A stretch of 64,000 nucleotides of DNA from Alloascoidea hylecoeti (Eukaryota), in the NCBI GenBank assembly GCA_001600815.1, contig BCKZ01000007.1:854059-918058 (forward strand). The letters are read 5' to 3'. A program made the position numbers and the translations under genes. Numbering within the stretch: the first letter of the stretch is position 1; each line of letters starts with the position of its first letter. Positions 35,489 through 46,719 of this stretch are shown one piece after another. The notes below the pieces were generated by a model. That model was not told where the DNA came from. It saw only the letters and a list, made by a program, of their open reading frames with translations, and did not search any database.

Positions 35489-36837
35489 TCATCTTTCCAA
35501 TGCTCCTTTTGAAGGAAATGACGGAAATAAACTGGGATCTTTTGCCCTCGGCTCTTCTTGGAAATACCAATGTTTTAGGGCCTCTTTGGCAGTTATCCGC
35601 TTTGACGGGTCCATTGTTAATAATCTGTCTAGTAAATTCTTAGTTCCATCAGATAACGATGAAGATATGGTATCACTAACCAAACGTAATATTGCGTTAT
35701 CGTGATTGTGTCCATGTTTTAAGAACGTTTGATTGACCAGCCTGCTGTCAAACGTTTCACTGTAGTTTTTCCAGTGTAAATCCGATGGAATACCCAACTT
35801 ATCGAAGATTTTGCTTAATTGATCTAGTTCATTAGTACCCGAGAAGAGCGGTTTCTTAGTTATCAATTCGGCAAATATACAACCAACAGACCACATGTCA
35901 ATAGCAGAGGAATAATCAGTTTGCTGGTTTTTATTTTGATATTCATTCAATAATAATTCAGGTGCGCTGAAAAGGGAAAATGTTAGAATTAATTACAAGT
36001 ATATTTGATAAGGTATTCTTACTTACCGATACCAAAGAGATACCACCAATGATGTTTTATTAACCTCATGCTTGCTCATGAAACGGCTTAACCCAAAGTC
36101 GGCAATTTTAAGATATCCATCATTTGTAAGTAATAAGTTTGATGTTTTTAAATCTCGATGTACAAATGAACAAGAATGAATTTCAGCTACTCCACTTAAC
36201 AATTGATACATTAATGCTTTGATCTCCGATGCAAGGAAAGGGGTACTCATTTCAGCTATTAAAGAACGTAAATCATGTTGGATGAAGTCCATAACGATGT
36301 AAACACTATATTTTTAAAATCAAAGTGTCAAGTTAGTATGATATTATCTGAAAATATGATGATATATGCTTACTCTGATGGTTTATTCCCAATGACAATC
36401 TCCCTTAAATTTACGATATTCTTATGCTTAAACCTCAACAATGCTGCAATTTCCCGTAAACTAGAAATGCAAAACTCTGAGCTGTGTCTATTAACCTTCA
36501 GTTTCTTTAAAGCAATTATATCTCCAGTTATTTTGTCCTTGGCTCTAGTCACTATTCCATAGGTACCCTCCTCGATAAAATTAAGTCGTTCATATCGAGA
36601 TATAGACCCACATGGCTTAAATGATCCAGAAGGTAAATTTATTATATATTTTTCTTCAAACTCTCGATCTAGGATTAATGGGGGTTGTTCATCTTCTATT
36701 GTTATTATCTCTGAAGCCTTTTTATTATTGATATTATCCTTTTTATTTTCATGTTTCTGTTTCTTTTTGGGTCGTGATTGGTCTATAACAGTATTTGAAC
36801 TTGCCCATCTTGTTTTTTTAAGGGTAGAATTATCCAT
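35489..36837 (-). CDS. CDK11/PITSLRE-like protein kinase, 3 exons (36837-36374, 36305-36027, 35966-35489)
   Basis: YERLNFIEEGTYGIV, ALKKLK...FCISSLREI, HRDLKTSNLL, DFGLSR, VSLWYRAPELLL and the C-terminal PSLFPSFPSKG typical of CDK11. Introns are GTAAGC..TAG and GTAAGT..CAG. Confidence 0.85.
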
Positions 36838-41271: not shown

Positions 41272-42987
41272 ATGGCATCTCATCGCGAATATAGTGCTGG
41301 GCAATTTACTTTGTATGAGGAGTTAGGAAGAGGGAGTTTTGGTGTGGTTTATAGGGGGATTGATAATCTAACTGGTAATATCGTTGCAGTCAAACAAATA
41401 GACTTGGAATCAAGTGATGATGATATTGAAGAGATTCAAAAGGAAATCGCAATATTAAGGACATGTAGACATCCGAATATAACAAAATACTATGGTTGTT
41501 TTGTTAAAGGTTATAAACTATGGATCATTATGGAATGTCTTAGTGGTGGTTCATGTTTGGATCTGTTACAGTCAGGATCAATTGATGAATCAGGTATCGC
41601 TATCATTTGTAAAGGTTTAGTACAAGCTTTAATTTATCTACATGAAAATGGAAAGATACACAGGGATATTAAAGCTGCTAATGTTCTGCTCTCATCCAAA
41701 GGAGAGGTCAAAGTTGGAGATTTCGGTGTCGCTACTCAACTGTCTAATAACTTATCAAGAAGAAACACGTTTGTTGGTACACCAGTATGTATATTCTATT
41801 AATACTCAAATCTTGGAAAAATATGCTAATTATATGTTAGTTTTGGATGTCACCAGAGGTAATATTGCAAGAAACTTATAATTATAAAGCAGATATATGG
41901 TCTCTGGGAATAACCGCAATGGAATTAGCATTAGGCAAACCGCCATTATCCAATATTCACCCAATGAAGGTATTATTCTTAATTCCCGAATCAGATCCAC
42001 CTAGATTACCAAGGAATAAATATTCTGCTGAATTTTGTGATTTTGTTAGTTCATGTTTACAAAAGAATCCTCACAATCGATTATCTGCTAAAAAATTAAT
42101 AAGTCATCCTTTTATAACGAATGCCGGAGGAATATCGAGGATGAAACAAATAATTGAGAAAAATAAAAGTCATGGTCCCTCAAGTACTCCTAAGAAGATG
42201 TACGTGCCAACAGTGTGAGTAAATACATTTATTATTACAATTGAGGGAATCTCTTAACATAACACTAACAATCAATAACATAGCCAAAGTAAAGATGAAT
42301 CATTAGATTCAATCAACACGAGTCAAATTGATTGGGATCTTGGAACCGTGAAAACTAAAACTATTAAATCTAGTACCATTCGTAATGAAAAGAATATAAA
42401 GGAACCCGAAACGATACAATTAAATAAAATAGATAAAGTATTTCAAGAAAACTTACAAACCTTCAAAAATAATAATAGAGTAAAATTTAATAACACAGTA
42501 ACTGAATTTCGATCATCTTCAAAAGTTGGTTCATCACCCTTAAAGAATCATGATCATGAACATACCCATGATATTTTTATATCGGAACAACTTAATAAGG
42601 TAATGGTGCAAAGCATAGAACAATTTAAACGAGAATCTGATTTATCTAGAGCAATTAATGAAGATGAACTTTTAAATAAGTTAAATGACTTTATGAAGCT
42701 TTTTGAAGAAATGGATCCAATGATCCTTTTAGATTTATTCAAAATAACTATTCAAAATGTTAAAAGGTATGTTTCATAATTAACTGTTTTTGATACGTAT
42801 ATTTTCGGAATTAGTCTAATAGATTATATCAATATTTAGGGATCCTATATTGTTTCCAAAATTGATACAGACGGATGAAAATAATAGTATTGGTCTTGAA
42901 CGTCAAGTGAATACGAGAAATAGGGACCGTGTCGAAGAGTTATTATTAAGTAGATGGGTACAAGGAATGAAATTGAATAAAAAGTGA
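41272..42987 (+). CDS. STE20/GCK-family kinase, Sid1/Sps1-like, 4 exons (41272-41784, 41841-42214, 42284-42766, 42840-42987)
   Basis: ELGRGSFGVVY, DIEEIQKEI, IHRDIKAAN, DFGVATQL, RRNTFVGTP/FWMSPEVI, DWDLGTVK and a C-terminal VEELLLSRWVQG. Confidence 0.85.
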
Positions 42988-43294
42988 CATGATTTTAAAG
43001 AAAAGAATTATTAATACAAAAACATATAGCTTTTATACACTTATATTTATATTGAATTGTTCATTAAAAGCATATTGTATTTAATCGCGATAACAATCGA
43101 TTCTATTAACTTCTTTCCTTTCAGATAGCCATATAAAAGTTGATAGATAAGTCTTGGGGCAGGAATTATTAACATATATAACTGGTTAATGAGTATTATC
43201 TCGTGAATTTCCAAAGAAACGGAGAAAACAGATAGCTAATTGACTTCGAGAATCATTATTTAATTGATAAGTATCATGCTATACCTTCTATTTT

Positions 43295-44143
43295 TCAGTC
43301 AATTTTTGACTCAGTAGATTTTTCTCTTCTTCTTTTACTCCGTGATTTGTCATAATCTCCATCTCTCAATTTATCTCTTGGTTTATGCCTATAAGCAGAC
43401 CTTTCATCCTTTTCGTTCCTGTGTGAGCTCCTATGTGAGCTACTGTGAGAACTCCTATGCGAACTCCTATGCGAACTTCTATGCGAACTTTTGTGTGAAT
43501 TTCTATGAGTATGTGAGCGATCACCAGAACAAAAAGATGAACTCTCATTCCTTTTTTTATCTTCCAAATAACCTTTCATTGGATCCTCGAGATCAGGATC
43601 CACTTCCTTATTAGTATTAAGTTGGGTATTGTCCCTCGTAGGCTCTTCTGCTTCTGACTCAACAACCATTATATCTTCTTCACTTTCACCTTCCTGTAGC
43701 TTATAACGCGTATGATCAACTTTAATAGTTCTATCCAATATCTGTGCTCCATTTAGGTTATCAACAGCTAAAATTGTTGATCTTTGATCTTCATATTTTA
43801 AGAAAGCGAACCCCTTTGAACGCCCAGTCGTTTTATCGCGAACTAACTTTAGCACCACTGGACAGCCATATTGAGAGAATATAGTTAATATATCGCCTTC
43901 TGTTAATTCTAGAGGTAATGAACCAATATCTTTATGCATTCATGTTAGAAAAGGTTTGTCAAATGAGGGAAAGCGAACATAAACATACATATAAAAGCGG
44001 TGTCTTTATACTGATTGTGCCAAGAGCCTTGGTGCCCTATACCTCGATCCACTTCCAGTTGACTAAGTTGTGTGGCAGACTTAAAACTAAACAAAATTGT
44101 TAGTGTGTGTCTCTGAAAATAATTTTAGATTGACTTACCTCAT
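43295..44143 (-). CDS. IST3: RES/U2 snRNP RRM protein Ist3/Snu17 (RBMX2), 3 exons (44143-44139, 44086-43989, 43929-43295)
   Basis: [35 protein letters not shown]...[24 protein letters not shown]...VDH, followed by an HRSS-repeat tail. Confidence 0.93.
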
Positions 44144-44211
44144 TGATATAAAATTGATGGGATGGAGGTTTCTAAATATTTTATTAAGCAGTGAGAACTT
44201 TCTTTTGAACC

Positions 44212-45024
44212 ATGTTTCCATGGCCATACGCATACGCCTACACAGCATACAAAGTAACATCTATGGTCGGCCTTCCCAGTGTACCAAATCTCAATCTCAT
44301 GTCATCGGATAAAACCTCTACAAGCCTTCCGAAAGATGACTTTCTCAAGTGTATCAATAGAGACCCTTTGTATCCCAATTATGCCTATGAAAACTCCATA
44401 GACTCAAAACCATTACTACCAAAACCTGAAAAATGGAACGGACATGTTGACACATTACAAGCATTTATAGGCAGAGCTGAACGTTATTTGAACAGTTTTG
44501 CCCCGAGATTGACTGCACCGGTTGCGTTGCAATTATATCTGGACTTGTTGCCACTGGAAGTAGCTGCTGCGATAGAAGACGGTTCATTGCCTAGCAATTT
44601 TTTCGTTTCGAATGTTTTCACCACTCCACAAGACATATCTGATAGGTTACGTTATATATATAAGCCCTCTTACGAACTATTTACAAAATCGTATGAACAA
44701 AAATTAAGAAAACTTAGTATGGAGTTTTCAAATTCAGAAGATACACAAACACCAAATACAAATACTCAACAATTACAATTAGAAAATTATGCACAGTCAC
44801 ATTTTCTGATTAGTAGGTTCTTAAAAAACACTGATCGATTTTTTATAGATTCATTTATGGAAGGATTAAATGATAATTTGAAAGACAAATACTTGGAACT
44901 GTCAAAAAGTGAATCTAGTTATTTGGAATTTCTTCACAAAATTATCGCCACCGAAAAATTGTCAAACGATGATTCTGCATATGAAAAAATTGACTCGCGA
45001 TCGAGCTTAGATTTAAAGAAATAA
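44212..45024 (+). CDS. Stand-alone Ty3/gypsy Gag (capsid)-like protein; alternative start at 44263
   Basis: LPKPEKWNGHVDTLQAFIGRAERYLN resembles the capsid N-terminal P.P.KF.G....FL...E.YF motif. LENYAQSH...FIDSFMEGLNDNLKD resembles the MHR/CTD Y...F...F..GL pattern. No pol or LTR is visible. Confidence 0.6.
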   Translation: MFPWPYAYAYTAYKVTSMVGLPSVPNLNLMSSDKTSTSLPKDDFLKCINRDPLYPNYAYENSIDSKPLLPKPEKWNGHVDTLQAFIGRAERYLNSFAPRLTAPVALQLYLDLLPLEVAAAIEDGSLPSNFFVSNVFTTPQDISDRLRYIYKPSYELFTKSYEQKLRKLSMEFSNSEDTQTPNTNTQQLQLENYAQSHFLISRFLKNTDRFFIDSFMEGLNDNLKDKYLELSKSESSYLEFLHKIIATEKLSNDDSAYEKIDSRSSLDLKK

Positions 45025-45696
45025 TTAATGATTTGTGATGTTATACGGAATAAGTAGTAAAGTAGTATATTATGTTGTAACATATACTAGCTATAGTAAA
45101 CTAATAGATGAATGATGAGAATAGTCTTTATGATTAGATTAATATAATGAGTGTCCCTCTAATTATAATTGTTGCGAAATAATGCCGCATATTGCTACAC
45201 CATAGTTCGCGATTTGCTTGGCCGGTGATTCGGTATTAATTTAATGGGCTGAATAATTCATTGGCTGTCAATCACATATAGCTGGCTGTAGTTATAGGTT
45301 TGGGACCAATAGCTTTATGCTCGCATCCGTTCTCTATTCTGCATTGTTTTTTGCTGGTAGCTGGCAGTAATCGATTACATATTGTGAGAGTAAATGCTAT
45401 TGTAATTACCTGATTAGGATCAGTGAACATTGAACAGGCTAGCGAACTACACTCACTACATGTTAATGTTAATTTAATGATGTATTCTTACACGATATAT
45501 ATTTAATGACTTTATTAAAATGAGGTATAAAAACCATTTTATTGTAAAATTAATGGGTAACATTGAAGTTTATTCAACTGATATGCATTTCATTTAACTA
45601 ATTATTTATTAACATGAATGACTGTAAACCTGAGATAAATTATCAGAAAATTGCAAGCCATTATAAGAGTATATTTTAAAAATCAACCAGCTTTAT

Positions 45697-46719
45697 CTAT
45701 AAACTGATTCCTAGTAAGGAAAGAGAAACTGAAATGCTTAAAGTAACTCCAATGCTCTTCAATAGAGTAGCAACAACAGCGGTAACATCAAGAAGTTCAT
45801 AAGCATATGAAACAACAGTGAGTGTACCAGTAACACATGTATTAACAGCTGCTCCAAAATTATTACCACTGATAACGGCTCCTCCAGTCAAATCATCAGA
45901 TTCTAAAGCTGTTTCAACATCAACAAAAACATTGGCTTCAACAAGAACTTGAGCACTTTCCAATACATTAATACATTTAGGTACGACGTTGAAATAATTG
46001 TTGAAACAATGTGCTTTTCCAAATCTAATTAGAGGAGCATGTGATGCCAAGTTATTGAAGTAATTGAAAGCAAGAGTAACAGCTAAATGTCCACTAACTT
46101 CAGATGCAATATCATCAACATGACCAATGGTACAAGCGTTATAGTGATCATGAATACTGTTATAAGATAATGTAATGTAATCTGAAGCATGTAAAATATC
46201 AATTAAACCACCATAATAGTCTTCACCGTGAAGTTGATCAGAAGATAAATCACAATGATCAATCCAAACATTGGTACTTGTCGAAATTTCAATTGCACTA
46301 CCAGTAGCTGCAAGAACCTTTTTAATTGTTAGGTTTCTTATAATGACATCACTAACGCTATTGATAAGGAAACCAACACCGGTAAGAACAACATCAGTAG
46401 AAGACGCGATAATAGTCTTACTTCCAGCAACTGTAATAATAACATCATCAGAAATTGATTCAGTAATGACAATAATTAACTTTTCAGTGGATTTTGCATA
46501 AGTCTCTAAATCGGCTAAAGTAGAAACAGTAACCGTCTCACCACCATAACCACCAACTGTACCACCATTCAAAGAAGCATAACCAAAAGCTGATTCAGTA
46601 AGAAGAGTAGAGGAAGAGCCAGATGATGTAGTACAAGTTGAGCATCTTTTTTCTAAAGCTAATGGAGAAGCTAAAGCTGCAGCTGCGTAAAAGAGAGATG
46701 TGATTGAGAAAAATTTCAT
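45697..46719 (-). CDS. Secreted polysaccharide lyase family 1 (pectate lyase) homologue with substituted active site
   Basis: Signal peptide MKFFSITSLFYAAAALASP and Kex2-like KR; motifs FGYASLNGGTVGG, VIIRNL, NVWIDHCDLS and HCFNNYF; hydrophobic C-terminus. Confidence 0.88.
   Translation of the reverse strand: MKFFSITSLFYAAAALASPLALEKRCSTCTTSSGSSSTLLTESAFGYASLNGGTVGGYGGETVTVSTLADLETYAKSTEKLIIVITESISDDVIITVAGSKTIIASSTDVVLTGVGFLINSVSDVIIRNLTIKKVLAATGSAIEISTSTNVWIDHCDLSSDQLHGEDYYGGLIDILHASDYITLSYNSIHDHYNACTIGHVDDIASEVSGHLAVTLAFNYFNNLASHAPLIRFGKAHCFNNYFNVVPKCINVLESAQVLVEANVFVDVETALESDDLTGGAVISGNNFGAAVNTCVTGTLTVVSYAYELLDVTAVVATLLKSIGVTLSISVSLSLLGISL

Follow-up and report, generated by a model that had tools for sequence, protein, structure and literature searches.

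In the stretch of Alloascoidea hylecoeti DNA analysed here (64,000 nucleotides of contig BCKZ01000007.1, in the following referred to as the window), a stand-alone open reading frame (ORF) of 270 amino acids is located on the plus strand, head-to-head with an IST3-like gene. This ORF may tentatively be regarded as a host gene derived from the capsid-encoding gag gene of a Ty3/gypsy-type retrotransposon. The window itself represents an ordinary yeast chromosome with a G+C content of 32%, on which genes for an MRS2-like transporter, a GNL3L/Grn1-type GTPase, an intron-split kinase, IST3, the ORF, a pectate lyase, a ketol-acid reductoisomerase (ILV5-like) and ribosomal protein S3Ae (RPS1-like) are found. 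The features of the ORF and of the DNA on either side, including the search for long terminal repeats (LTRs), are as follows.

44212-45024, plus strand: stand-alone ORF, ATG to stop, 270 amino acids (coordinates include the stop codon)
44263 and 44299, plus strand: alternative in-frame ATGs, corresponding to Met18 (253 amino acids) and Met30 (241 amino acids)
44398-44952, plus strand: conserved core, residues 63-247, aligning with residues 14-201 of the homologue P0002
44144-44211, no strand: gap of 68 bp between the divergent start codons
45025-45696, no strand: downstream intergenic DNA, 672 bp, reaching to the stop of the minus-strand pectate-lyase gene, without pol, protease or LTR remnant

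The ORF and its homologues

An earlier note on this DNA had described an intact ORF of 253-270 amino acids with two characteristic motifs. This description agrees with the translation, which comprises 270 residues from Met1 or 253 from Met18 and contains the motif blocks LLPKPEKWNGHVDTLQAFIGRAERYL and LENYAQSHFLISRFLKNTDRFFIDSFMEGL.

An exhaustive phmmer search of 1,835,955,588 representative proteins (E <= 0.001) yielded two matches, P0001 and P0002. P0001, a protein of 81 amino acids with 100% identity over residues 1-79, stems from the same gene but is truncated, residue 79 being followed by just two further residues, which are unrelated. Located on an 11,697-bp contig, it constitutes the only public record of the gene. 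The full-length protein of 270 amino acids was not found in the public protein collection; in public data, the gene thus appears either to lack an annotation or to be interrupted by the end of a contig. P0002 (263 amino acids) originates from another organism and displays 31% identity over ORF residues 63-247 with an E-value of 7.7e-10. Its 90% cluster contains one more member, P0003 (271 amino acids). Both proteins are unnamed and are found on one contig each, of 5,253 bp for P0002 and 2,111 bp for P0003.

The homologue alignment (A1) comprises 69 invariant columns at 31-34% identity, most of which are situated in two blocks, LPKPxxW[ND]G...TLxxFI...RYLxSFxPRLT...ALQLYLD.LP and L(E/D)xYAxxH...D.F...FxxGLxxxLxxKY. 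Insertions and deletions are located between predicted helices, and the first ~56 residues of the ORF are not conserved. Conservation of length in combination with the 69 invariant columns suggests that the protein is under constraint. One CTG codon of the ORF, which this yeast may read as either Leu or Ser, falls at an invariant leucine of the first block (LYLD).

At the local stop frequency of 0.073 per codon, the probability of 270 open codons is 1.4e-9, and the codon-choice score amounts to 0.11 in frame, whereas the two alternative frames score -0.10 and -0.02. Because of the improbability of such an open frame, the existence of the homologue P0002 and the in-frame codon choice, the ORF is almost certainly a real gene.

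Relatives beyond this cluster are missing from all collections searched. Word-indexed searches with the ORF and with A1 in up to 5.8e9 proteins, including those of 476-2000 amino acids, returned nothing besides P0002, and no relative was obtained by metagenome scans with A1 and the degenerate pattern F.PRLT...ALQLYLD or by a scan of viral contigs with A1. Likewise, neither paralogues nor Gag-Pol forms were present in the protein searches (1.84 billion and 5.8e9 proteins), and the gene is probably single-copy. Since most yeast genomes are without deposited proteins, the narrow distribution is weak evidence.

Resemblance to Ty3/gypsy capsids

Comparison of protein-language-model features in the ESM Atlas revealed Retrotrans_gag clusters as the nearest neighbours of the ORF (top score 0.94, 15 of 30 matches, recognition 2466), with further rows for Ty3_capsid, DUF4939 (making up 15% of one cluster) and DUF1759. 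DUF4939 is taken to be the family of RTL/LDOC1-type proteins. P0002 likewise reached Retrotrans_gag and Ty3_capsid (0.94, 14 of 30 matches, recognition 3019), both proteins lying above the recognition mark of 2300, and for both the ten best family-bearing matches all belong to one clan, a result also obtained for one third of shuffled proteins. These neighbours are the only external resemblance found and point to Gag, as a lead and not as proof.

Within the ORF, the conserved motifs follow each other in the order Px(x)W[DN]G, LxxFI...YL, (I/F)(Y/F)KP, LxxYAxxH and FxxGLxxxL. This order is paralleled by the conserved columns of six gypsy Gags, W..W...e.y, ty..l..L...f, F...Q..E.v..f and i.D..I.G, and an hhalign local alignment, although not significant, places A1 on the same N-terminal stretch of the six-Gag alignment.

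The AlphaFold2 model, which is of low confidence, displays an all-helical core, with eight helices distributed over residues 79-249 (~170 residues). The Ty3 capsid protein (CA) consists of a four-helix N-terminal domain and a five-helix C-terminal domain following an unstructured N-terminus, and its identity to Arc amounts to only 10-14% (PMC6525542). In its number of helices, the predicted core is compatible with a Ty3-type capsid. In a Foldseek search of BFVD with the alignment-based model, Gag proteins of retroviral or metaviral origin, among them ORF1 of a Penicillium metavirus, occupied ranks 1, 4, 6 and 36 of the best 50, but did not reach E <= 0.001. Coat proteins were found at ranks 19 and 24 and an uncharacterized protein at rank 37 of the same list; the viruses behind these three ranks are presumably plant pararetroviruses.

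A considerable number of results weigh against a Gag ancestry. Already in the Atlas, the shared features (128 of 256 for the ORF as well as for P0002) are in the range typical of chance matches or distant relatives. In Pfam, the ORF matched 0 families at E <= 1, and at E <= 10 the ORF, its core, its halves, P0002 and P0003 gave only the unrelated Cas6_C and SFTA2, so that the ORF shows no profile match at or above the gathering scores of PF03732 or PF19259. Among 177,635 PDB sequences, the A1 profile detected no capsid, but only two unrelated matches with E-values of 0.42 and 0.61. The hidden Markov model (HMM) built from A1 was run against seven gypsy Gags and 162 decoys (22 ORFs of the window plus 140 shuffled sequences). 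Here, the highest-scoring genuine Gag attained an E-value of 3 and ranked beneath seven shuffled decoys. Among 749 ORFs of 92 loci the best E-values were 0.71 (A1 HMM) and 0.29 (phmmer), and among the ORFs of 12 further loci 0.2; records from the scan for reverse transcriptase (RT) motifs, mostly ~7-8 kb long and of plant-pararetrovirus-like appearance, were screened with the A1 HMM and phmmer only. An hhalign comparison of A1 with the six-Gag alignment resulted in P 0.19.

The predicted local distance difference test (pLDDT) values of the two structure models were low, 38.6 and 47.4, and Foldseek returned no PDB entry at E <= 0.001 and no capsid among the top 50; with models of such low confidence, a missing capsid in the PDB lists is no evidence for another fold. 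With the single-sequence model, the best 50 BFVD matches contained 0 Gag proteins and the Gag hint was lost. Prediction of a homodimer of residues 60-255, for which the alignment was not used, gave a score of 0.00 in both of two runs, which is to be read as "no answer". The Foldseek comparison that the earlier note had proposed produced Gag ranks in one BFVD list only, from low-pLDDT models and without a match at E <= 0.001. The capsid-like identity claimed there is supported in part, as a lead from language-model neighbours, motif order and helix number; significant matches to Gag at the level of HMMs or folds were not obtained.

How much these negative results count can be judged from genuine Gags. 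Ty3/gypsy elements were collected from IMG/VR via conserved RNase H and RT motifs, and seven of them were confirmed by Pfam (L002, L003, L004, L005, L007, L009 and L010). Only one of the seven Gags, that of L005, passes the Pfam gathering score. The Gags of L010 and L003 remain under it, L007 matches only PNMA and below the cut-off, and for L002, L004 and L009 no Gag family appears at E <= 0.001, although their gypsy-type polyproteins are complete, with RT, RNase H and integrase. Moreover, even the Pfam-positive Gag of L005 was not detected by comparison with the other six (best phmmer E 0.53, hhalign P 0.18). The sequence tests used here cannot decide Gag membership, and since genuine Gags fail the same tests, the negative profile results lower the case for it only a little.

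The strongest competing explanation is an unrelated, lineage-restricted and fast-evolving helical yeast protein, the Atlas neighbours of which would merely reflect a generic helical, eukaryote-like style. Such a protein would account for the lack of any profile, PDB or fold match to a Gag, for the chance-range Atlas overlap and the clan agreement also seen with shuffled proteins, for the ordinary housekeeping genes next to the ORF and for the single homologue cluster in 1.84 billion proteins. It fits less well that two proteins with 31% identity both reach the same family with 0.94 and a recognition above 2300, and that order and spacing of the conserved motifs are as in real gypsy Gags; the missing matches in turn lose force, as three of the seven genuine Gags are without a Gag family and that of L005 goes undetected by the other six. 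An unrelated protein is accordingly a possible, if somewhat doubtful, explanation. For descent from a Gag, followed by retention as a stand-alone host gene, the arguments come close to balancing, and this reading is adopted here tentatively. The capsid idea is plausible but unproven, and the gene is best described as an orphan with plausible ancestry.

Flanking DNA and neighbouring genes

According to the earlier note, the ORF is accompanied by neither zinc knuckle, protease, pol nor LTR. Motif scan, repeat scan and tblastn of the 64 kb confirm this absence. The ORF protein contains a single cysteine, and neither a CCHC knuckle nor a D[ST]G protease motif was found in it; both motifs are also missing from the three frames of 44900-45700, where the longest open stretch measures 43 codons. 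Direct repeats >29 nt were not present in the 38-52 kb section of the window, in agreement with the expectation of no flanking LTR remnants, and no tRNA was detected in the window. A tblastn search of the window with six gypsy polyproteins gave 18 high-scoring segment pairs, the best with an E-value of only 0.54, and no retrotransposon is present in the 64 kb. One of these pairs, formed by Gag residues 94-122 of L004, lies inside the ORF (44902-44991, E 4.1), but was rejected as a chance match, since an N-terminal Gag segment is paired with the C-terminus of the ORF. No remnant of pol, protease or LTR is detectable around the ORF, which, provided that a Gag origin is accepted, consists of gag alone, with pol, LTRs and all further parts of an element missing. 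Just 3' of its stop codon, elements of the TAG...TATGT type can be seen by eye, which are presumably yeast terminator-like.

These observations bear on a further explanation, in which the ORF is the relic gag of a dead LTR retrotransposon and P0002 the gag of a related element elsewhere, not an orthologue, so that the similarity between the two would be silent on host selection. P0002 could indeed be the gag of a mobile element, its 5,253-bp contig being about the size of an LTR element. Among 17 genes of the window scored for codon adaptation, the ORF comes last with 0.11 (0.14-0.47 for the others), which also counts against a host gene of Gag descent, and CTG accounts for 4 of its 35 leucine codons as compared to 26 of 695 in the 16 other window genes. 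Against a relic, no trace of pol, protease, zinc knuckle or LTR was found in 64 kb. With 672 bp to the next gene, all of pol would have to be cleanly lost while gag kept its 270 open codons, for which the above-mentioned probability applies if the frame is unconstrained. In addition, there is no multi-copy family and no Gag-Pol relative in 1.84 billion proteins, and the cluster of P0002 has two members on one contig each. A relic is therefore considered rather unlikely. A chance, untranslated ORF in the upstream regulatory region of IST3, as might be imagined from the unconserved first ~56 residues overlapping the place of the IST3 promoter and from the absence of the full 270-residue protein from the public collection, is highly improbable in view of the open-frame probability of 1.4e-9, the homologue of matching length with its 69 invariant columns and a codon choice above that of the other two frames.

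The genes on either side of the ORF have the following organization.

43295-44143, minus strand: IST3-like gene with an RNA-recognition motif (RRM), rebuilt splice model, 246 amino acids, two introns
44143-44139, 44086-43989 and 43929-43295, minus strand: exons of the IST3-like gene, the first of 5 nt (ATGAG), with the ATG at 44143
44138-44087, minus strand: intron 1, 52 nt, GTAAGT...CACTAAC...TAG
43988-43930, minus strand: intron 2, 59 nt, GTATGT...TTCTAAC...AAG
45697-46719, minus strand: pectate lyase, 340 amino acids, secreted-looking, directly downstream of the ORF

In head-to-head orientation, the ATG of the ORF is separated by 68 bp from that of the IST3-like gene, the distance increasing to 119 bp from Met18 and 155 bp from Met30. 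The start had been placed ~70-120 bp from the IST3 ATG before, which holds within the 68-155 bp given by the choice of methionine. On the plus strand of the 68-bp gap, a TATAAAA sequence is situated at 44146-44152. The promoter of either divergent gene must overlap the 5' end of the other, and the gap may serve as a bidirectional promoter. None of the RNA runs listed contains the stretch, and in three metatranscriptome runs, which share their study with a DNA run containing it, 0 contigs matched 43200-45300, a result without significance for the expression of the ORF.

The product of the IST3-like gene contains RRM_1 (PF00076, E 7.5e-17), and the name IST3 follows a presumed similarity to Ist3/Snu17 of S. 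cerevisiae. A simple ORF call covers the main ORF of 214 amino acids and lacks the first 33 codons. CACTAAC and TTCTAAC in the two introns are branch-point-like sequences. The (S/H)HRSS repeat tail of the protein is encoded at 43419-43490 by a tandem repeat with a unit of 12 nt, present in 5 copies with 71-100% identity; such an RS-like C-terminal extension is not known from S. cerevisiae Ist3.

The pectate lyase (PF00544, E 1.7e-37) is an unusual enzyme in a budding yeast, and is consistent with the wood-decay metagenome label of sequencing runs tied to this stretch. Two protein-kinase genes of the window, at 41272-42218 (plus strand, Pkinase E 1.8e-45) and 36370-36837 (minus strand, E 6.5e-10), are each divided among several ORFs, presumably by introns. 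For a budding yeast, the genome seems to be comparatively rich in introns.

Proposed function and known capsid-derived genes

If the ORF is of Gag descent, its helical product of ~240-270 amino acids would be a highly diverged descendant of a Ty3/gypsy-type CA with N-terminal and C-terminal lobes. Nucleocapsid zinc knuckle, protease, pol and LTRs would have been lost, while the gene was kept by the host and transcribed from the short divergent region it has in common with IST3. The product might still self-associate through its CA-like lobes, and could be used by the host to co-assemble with and poison the Gag of resident retrotransposons, in the manner of Ty1 p22/p18 and Drt2, or alternatively to form particles of its own. 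The restriction-factor step is judged unlikely at best. Taken as a whole, the proposal that this is the first capsid gene of Ty3/gypsy origin to have been co-opted by a budding yeast, that is, a two-lobed CA without nucleocapsid, conserved between species, driven from the region common with IST3 and acting either as a trans-dominant inhibitor of Ty3-like assembly or in host particles, is improbable.

Comparison with Ty3/gypsy Gag CA (PF03732, PF19259) reveals an all-helical core after a non-conserved N-terminus, a similar motif order and the nearest language-model neighbours as common traits. On the other hand, the ORF gave no significant match in profile or fold searches, has no zinc knuckle and is accompanied by neither protease, pol nor LTRs; it is not filed as a member of the family. 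Many true Gags escape detection by Pfam and pairwise HMM tools, and stand-alone capsid genes may for this reason be under-counted.

Domesticated gag genes are already a known kind, captured capsid genes being known mainly from animals. Arc, PEG10/RTL and PNMA are domesticated Metaviridae capsid genes of animals with recognisable Pfam domains and proven capsid assembly. The ORF would follow the same concept of a capsid-only, host-driven gene, but belongs to another kingdom and has no Pfam domain match.

In fungi, deep co-option has been reported for three genes only, the single-copy genes Crtg12-14, which derive from gag alone (Wang and Han 2021, PMC8321522). As far as described in the available part of that study, Crtg12 and Crtg13 originate from Ty1/copia and Crtg14 from Bel-Pao, with a distribution over Dothideomycetes-type families and Tremellales/Trichosporonales, and their status is based on synteny, selection and expression; none of these three deep fungal gag co-options is given there as Ty3/gypsy-derived or as occurring in budding yeasts (PMC8321522). 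The ORF resembles them as a possible gag-only fungal gene, but differs in its Ty3/gypsy hints and its occurrence in a budding yeast. At the level of titles and abstracts, no Ty3/gypsy-derived host capsid gene of Saccharomycotina was found in the literature. A Ty3-type host capsid gene in a budding yeast would, if true, extend the short fungal list, and do so in a genetically tractable group that allows direct experiments on restriction or particle formation.

For a possible function of the ORF, a parallel is provided by Drt2 and Ty1 p22/p18 of Saccharomyces cerevisiae, restriction factors of capsid origin described as a capsid fragment that enters assembling particles and blocks them (PMC10951436). 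According to the same source, these proteins derive from a Ty1/copia-type Gag and comprise the CA C-terminal domain only, and DRT2 is situated in a recognisable Ty1' relic locus (PMC10951436). The ORF, in contrast, hints at the Ty3/gypsy type, would possess both lobes and has no relic around it. What it may share with Drt2 and p22 is its nature as an ORF on a yeast chromosome that possibly descends from a Gag and lacks the rest of the element. Because they are likewise Gag-derived yeast ORFs without the other element parts, the mechanism of Drt2 and p22 would be the most economical model for the ORF, if it is indeed Gag-derived.
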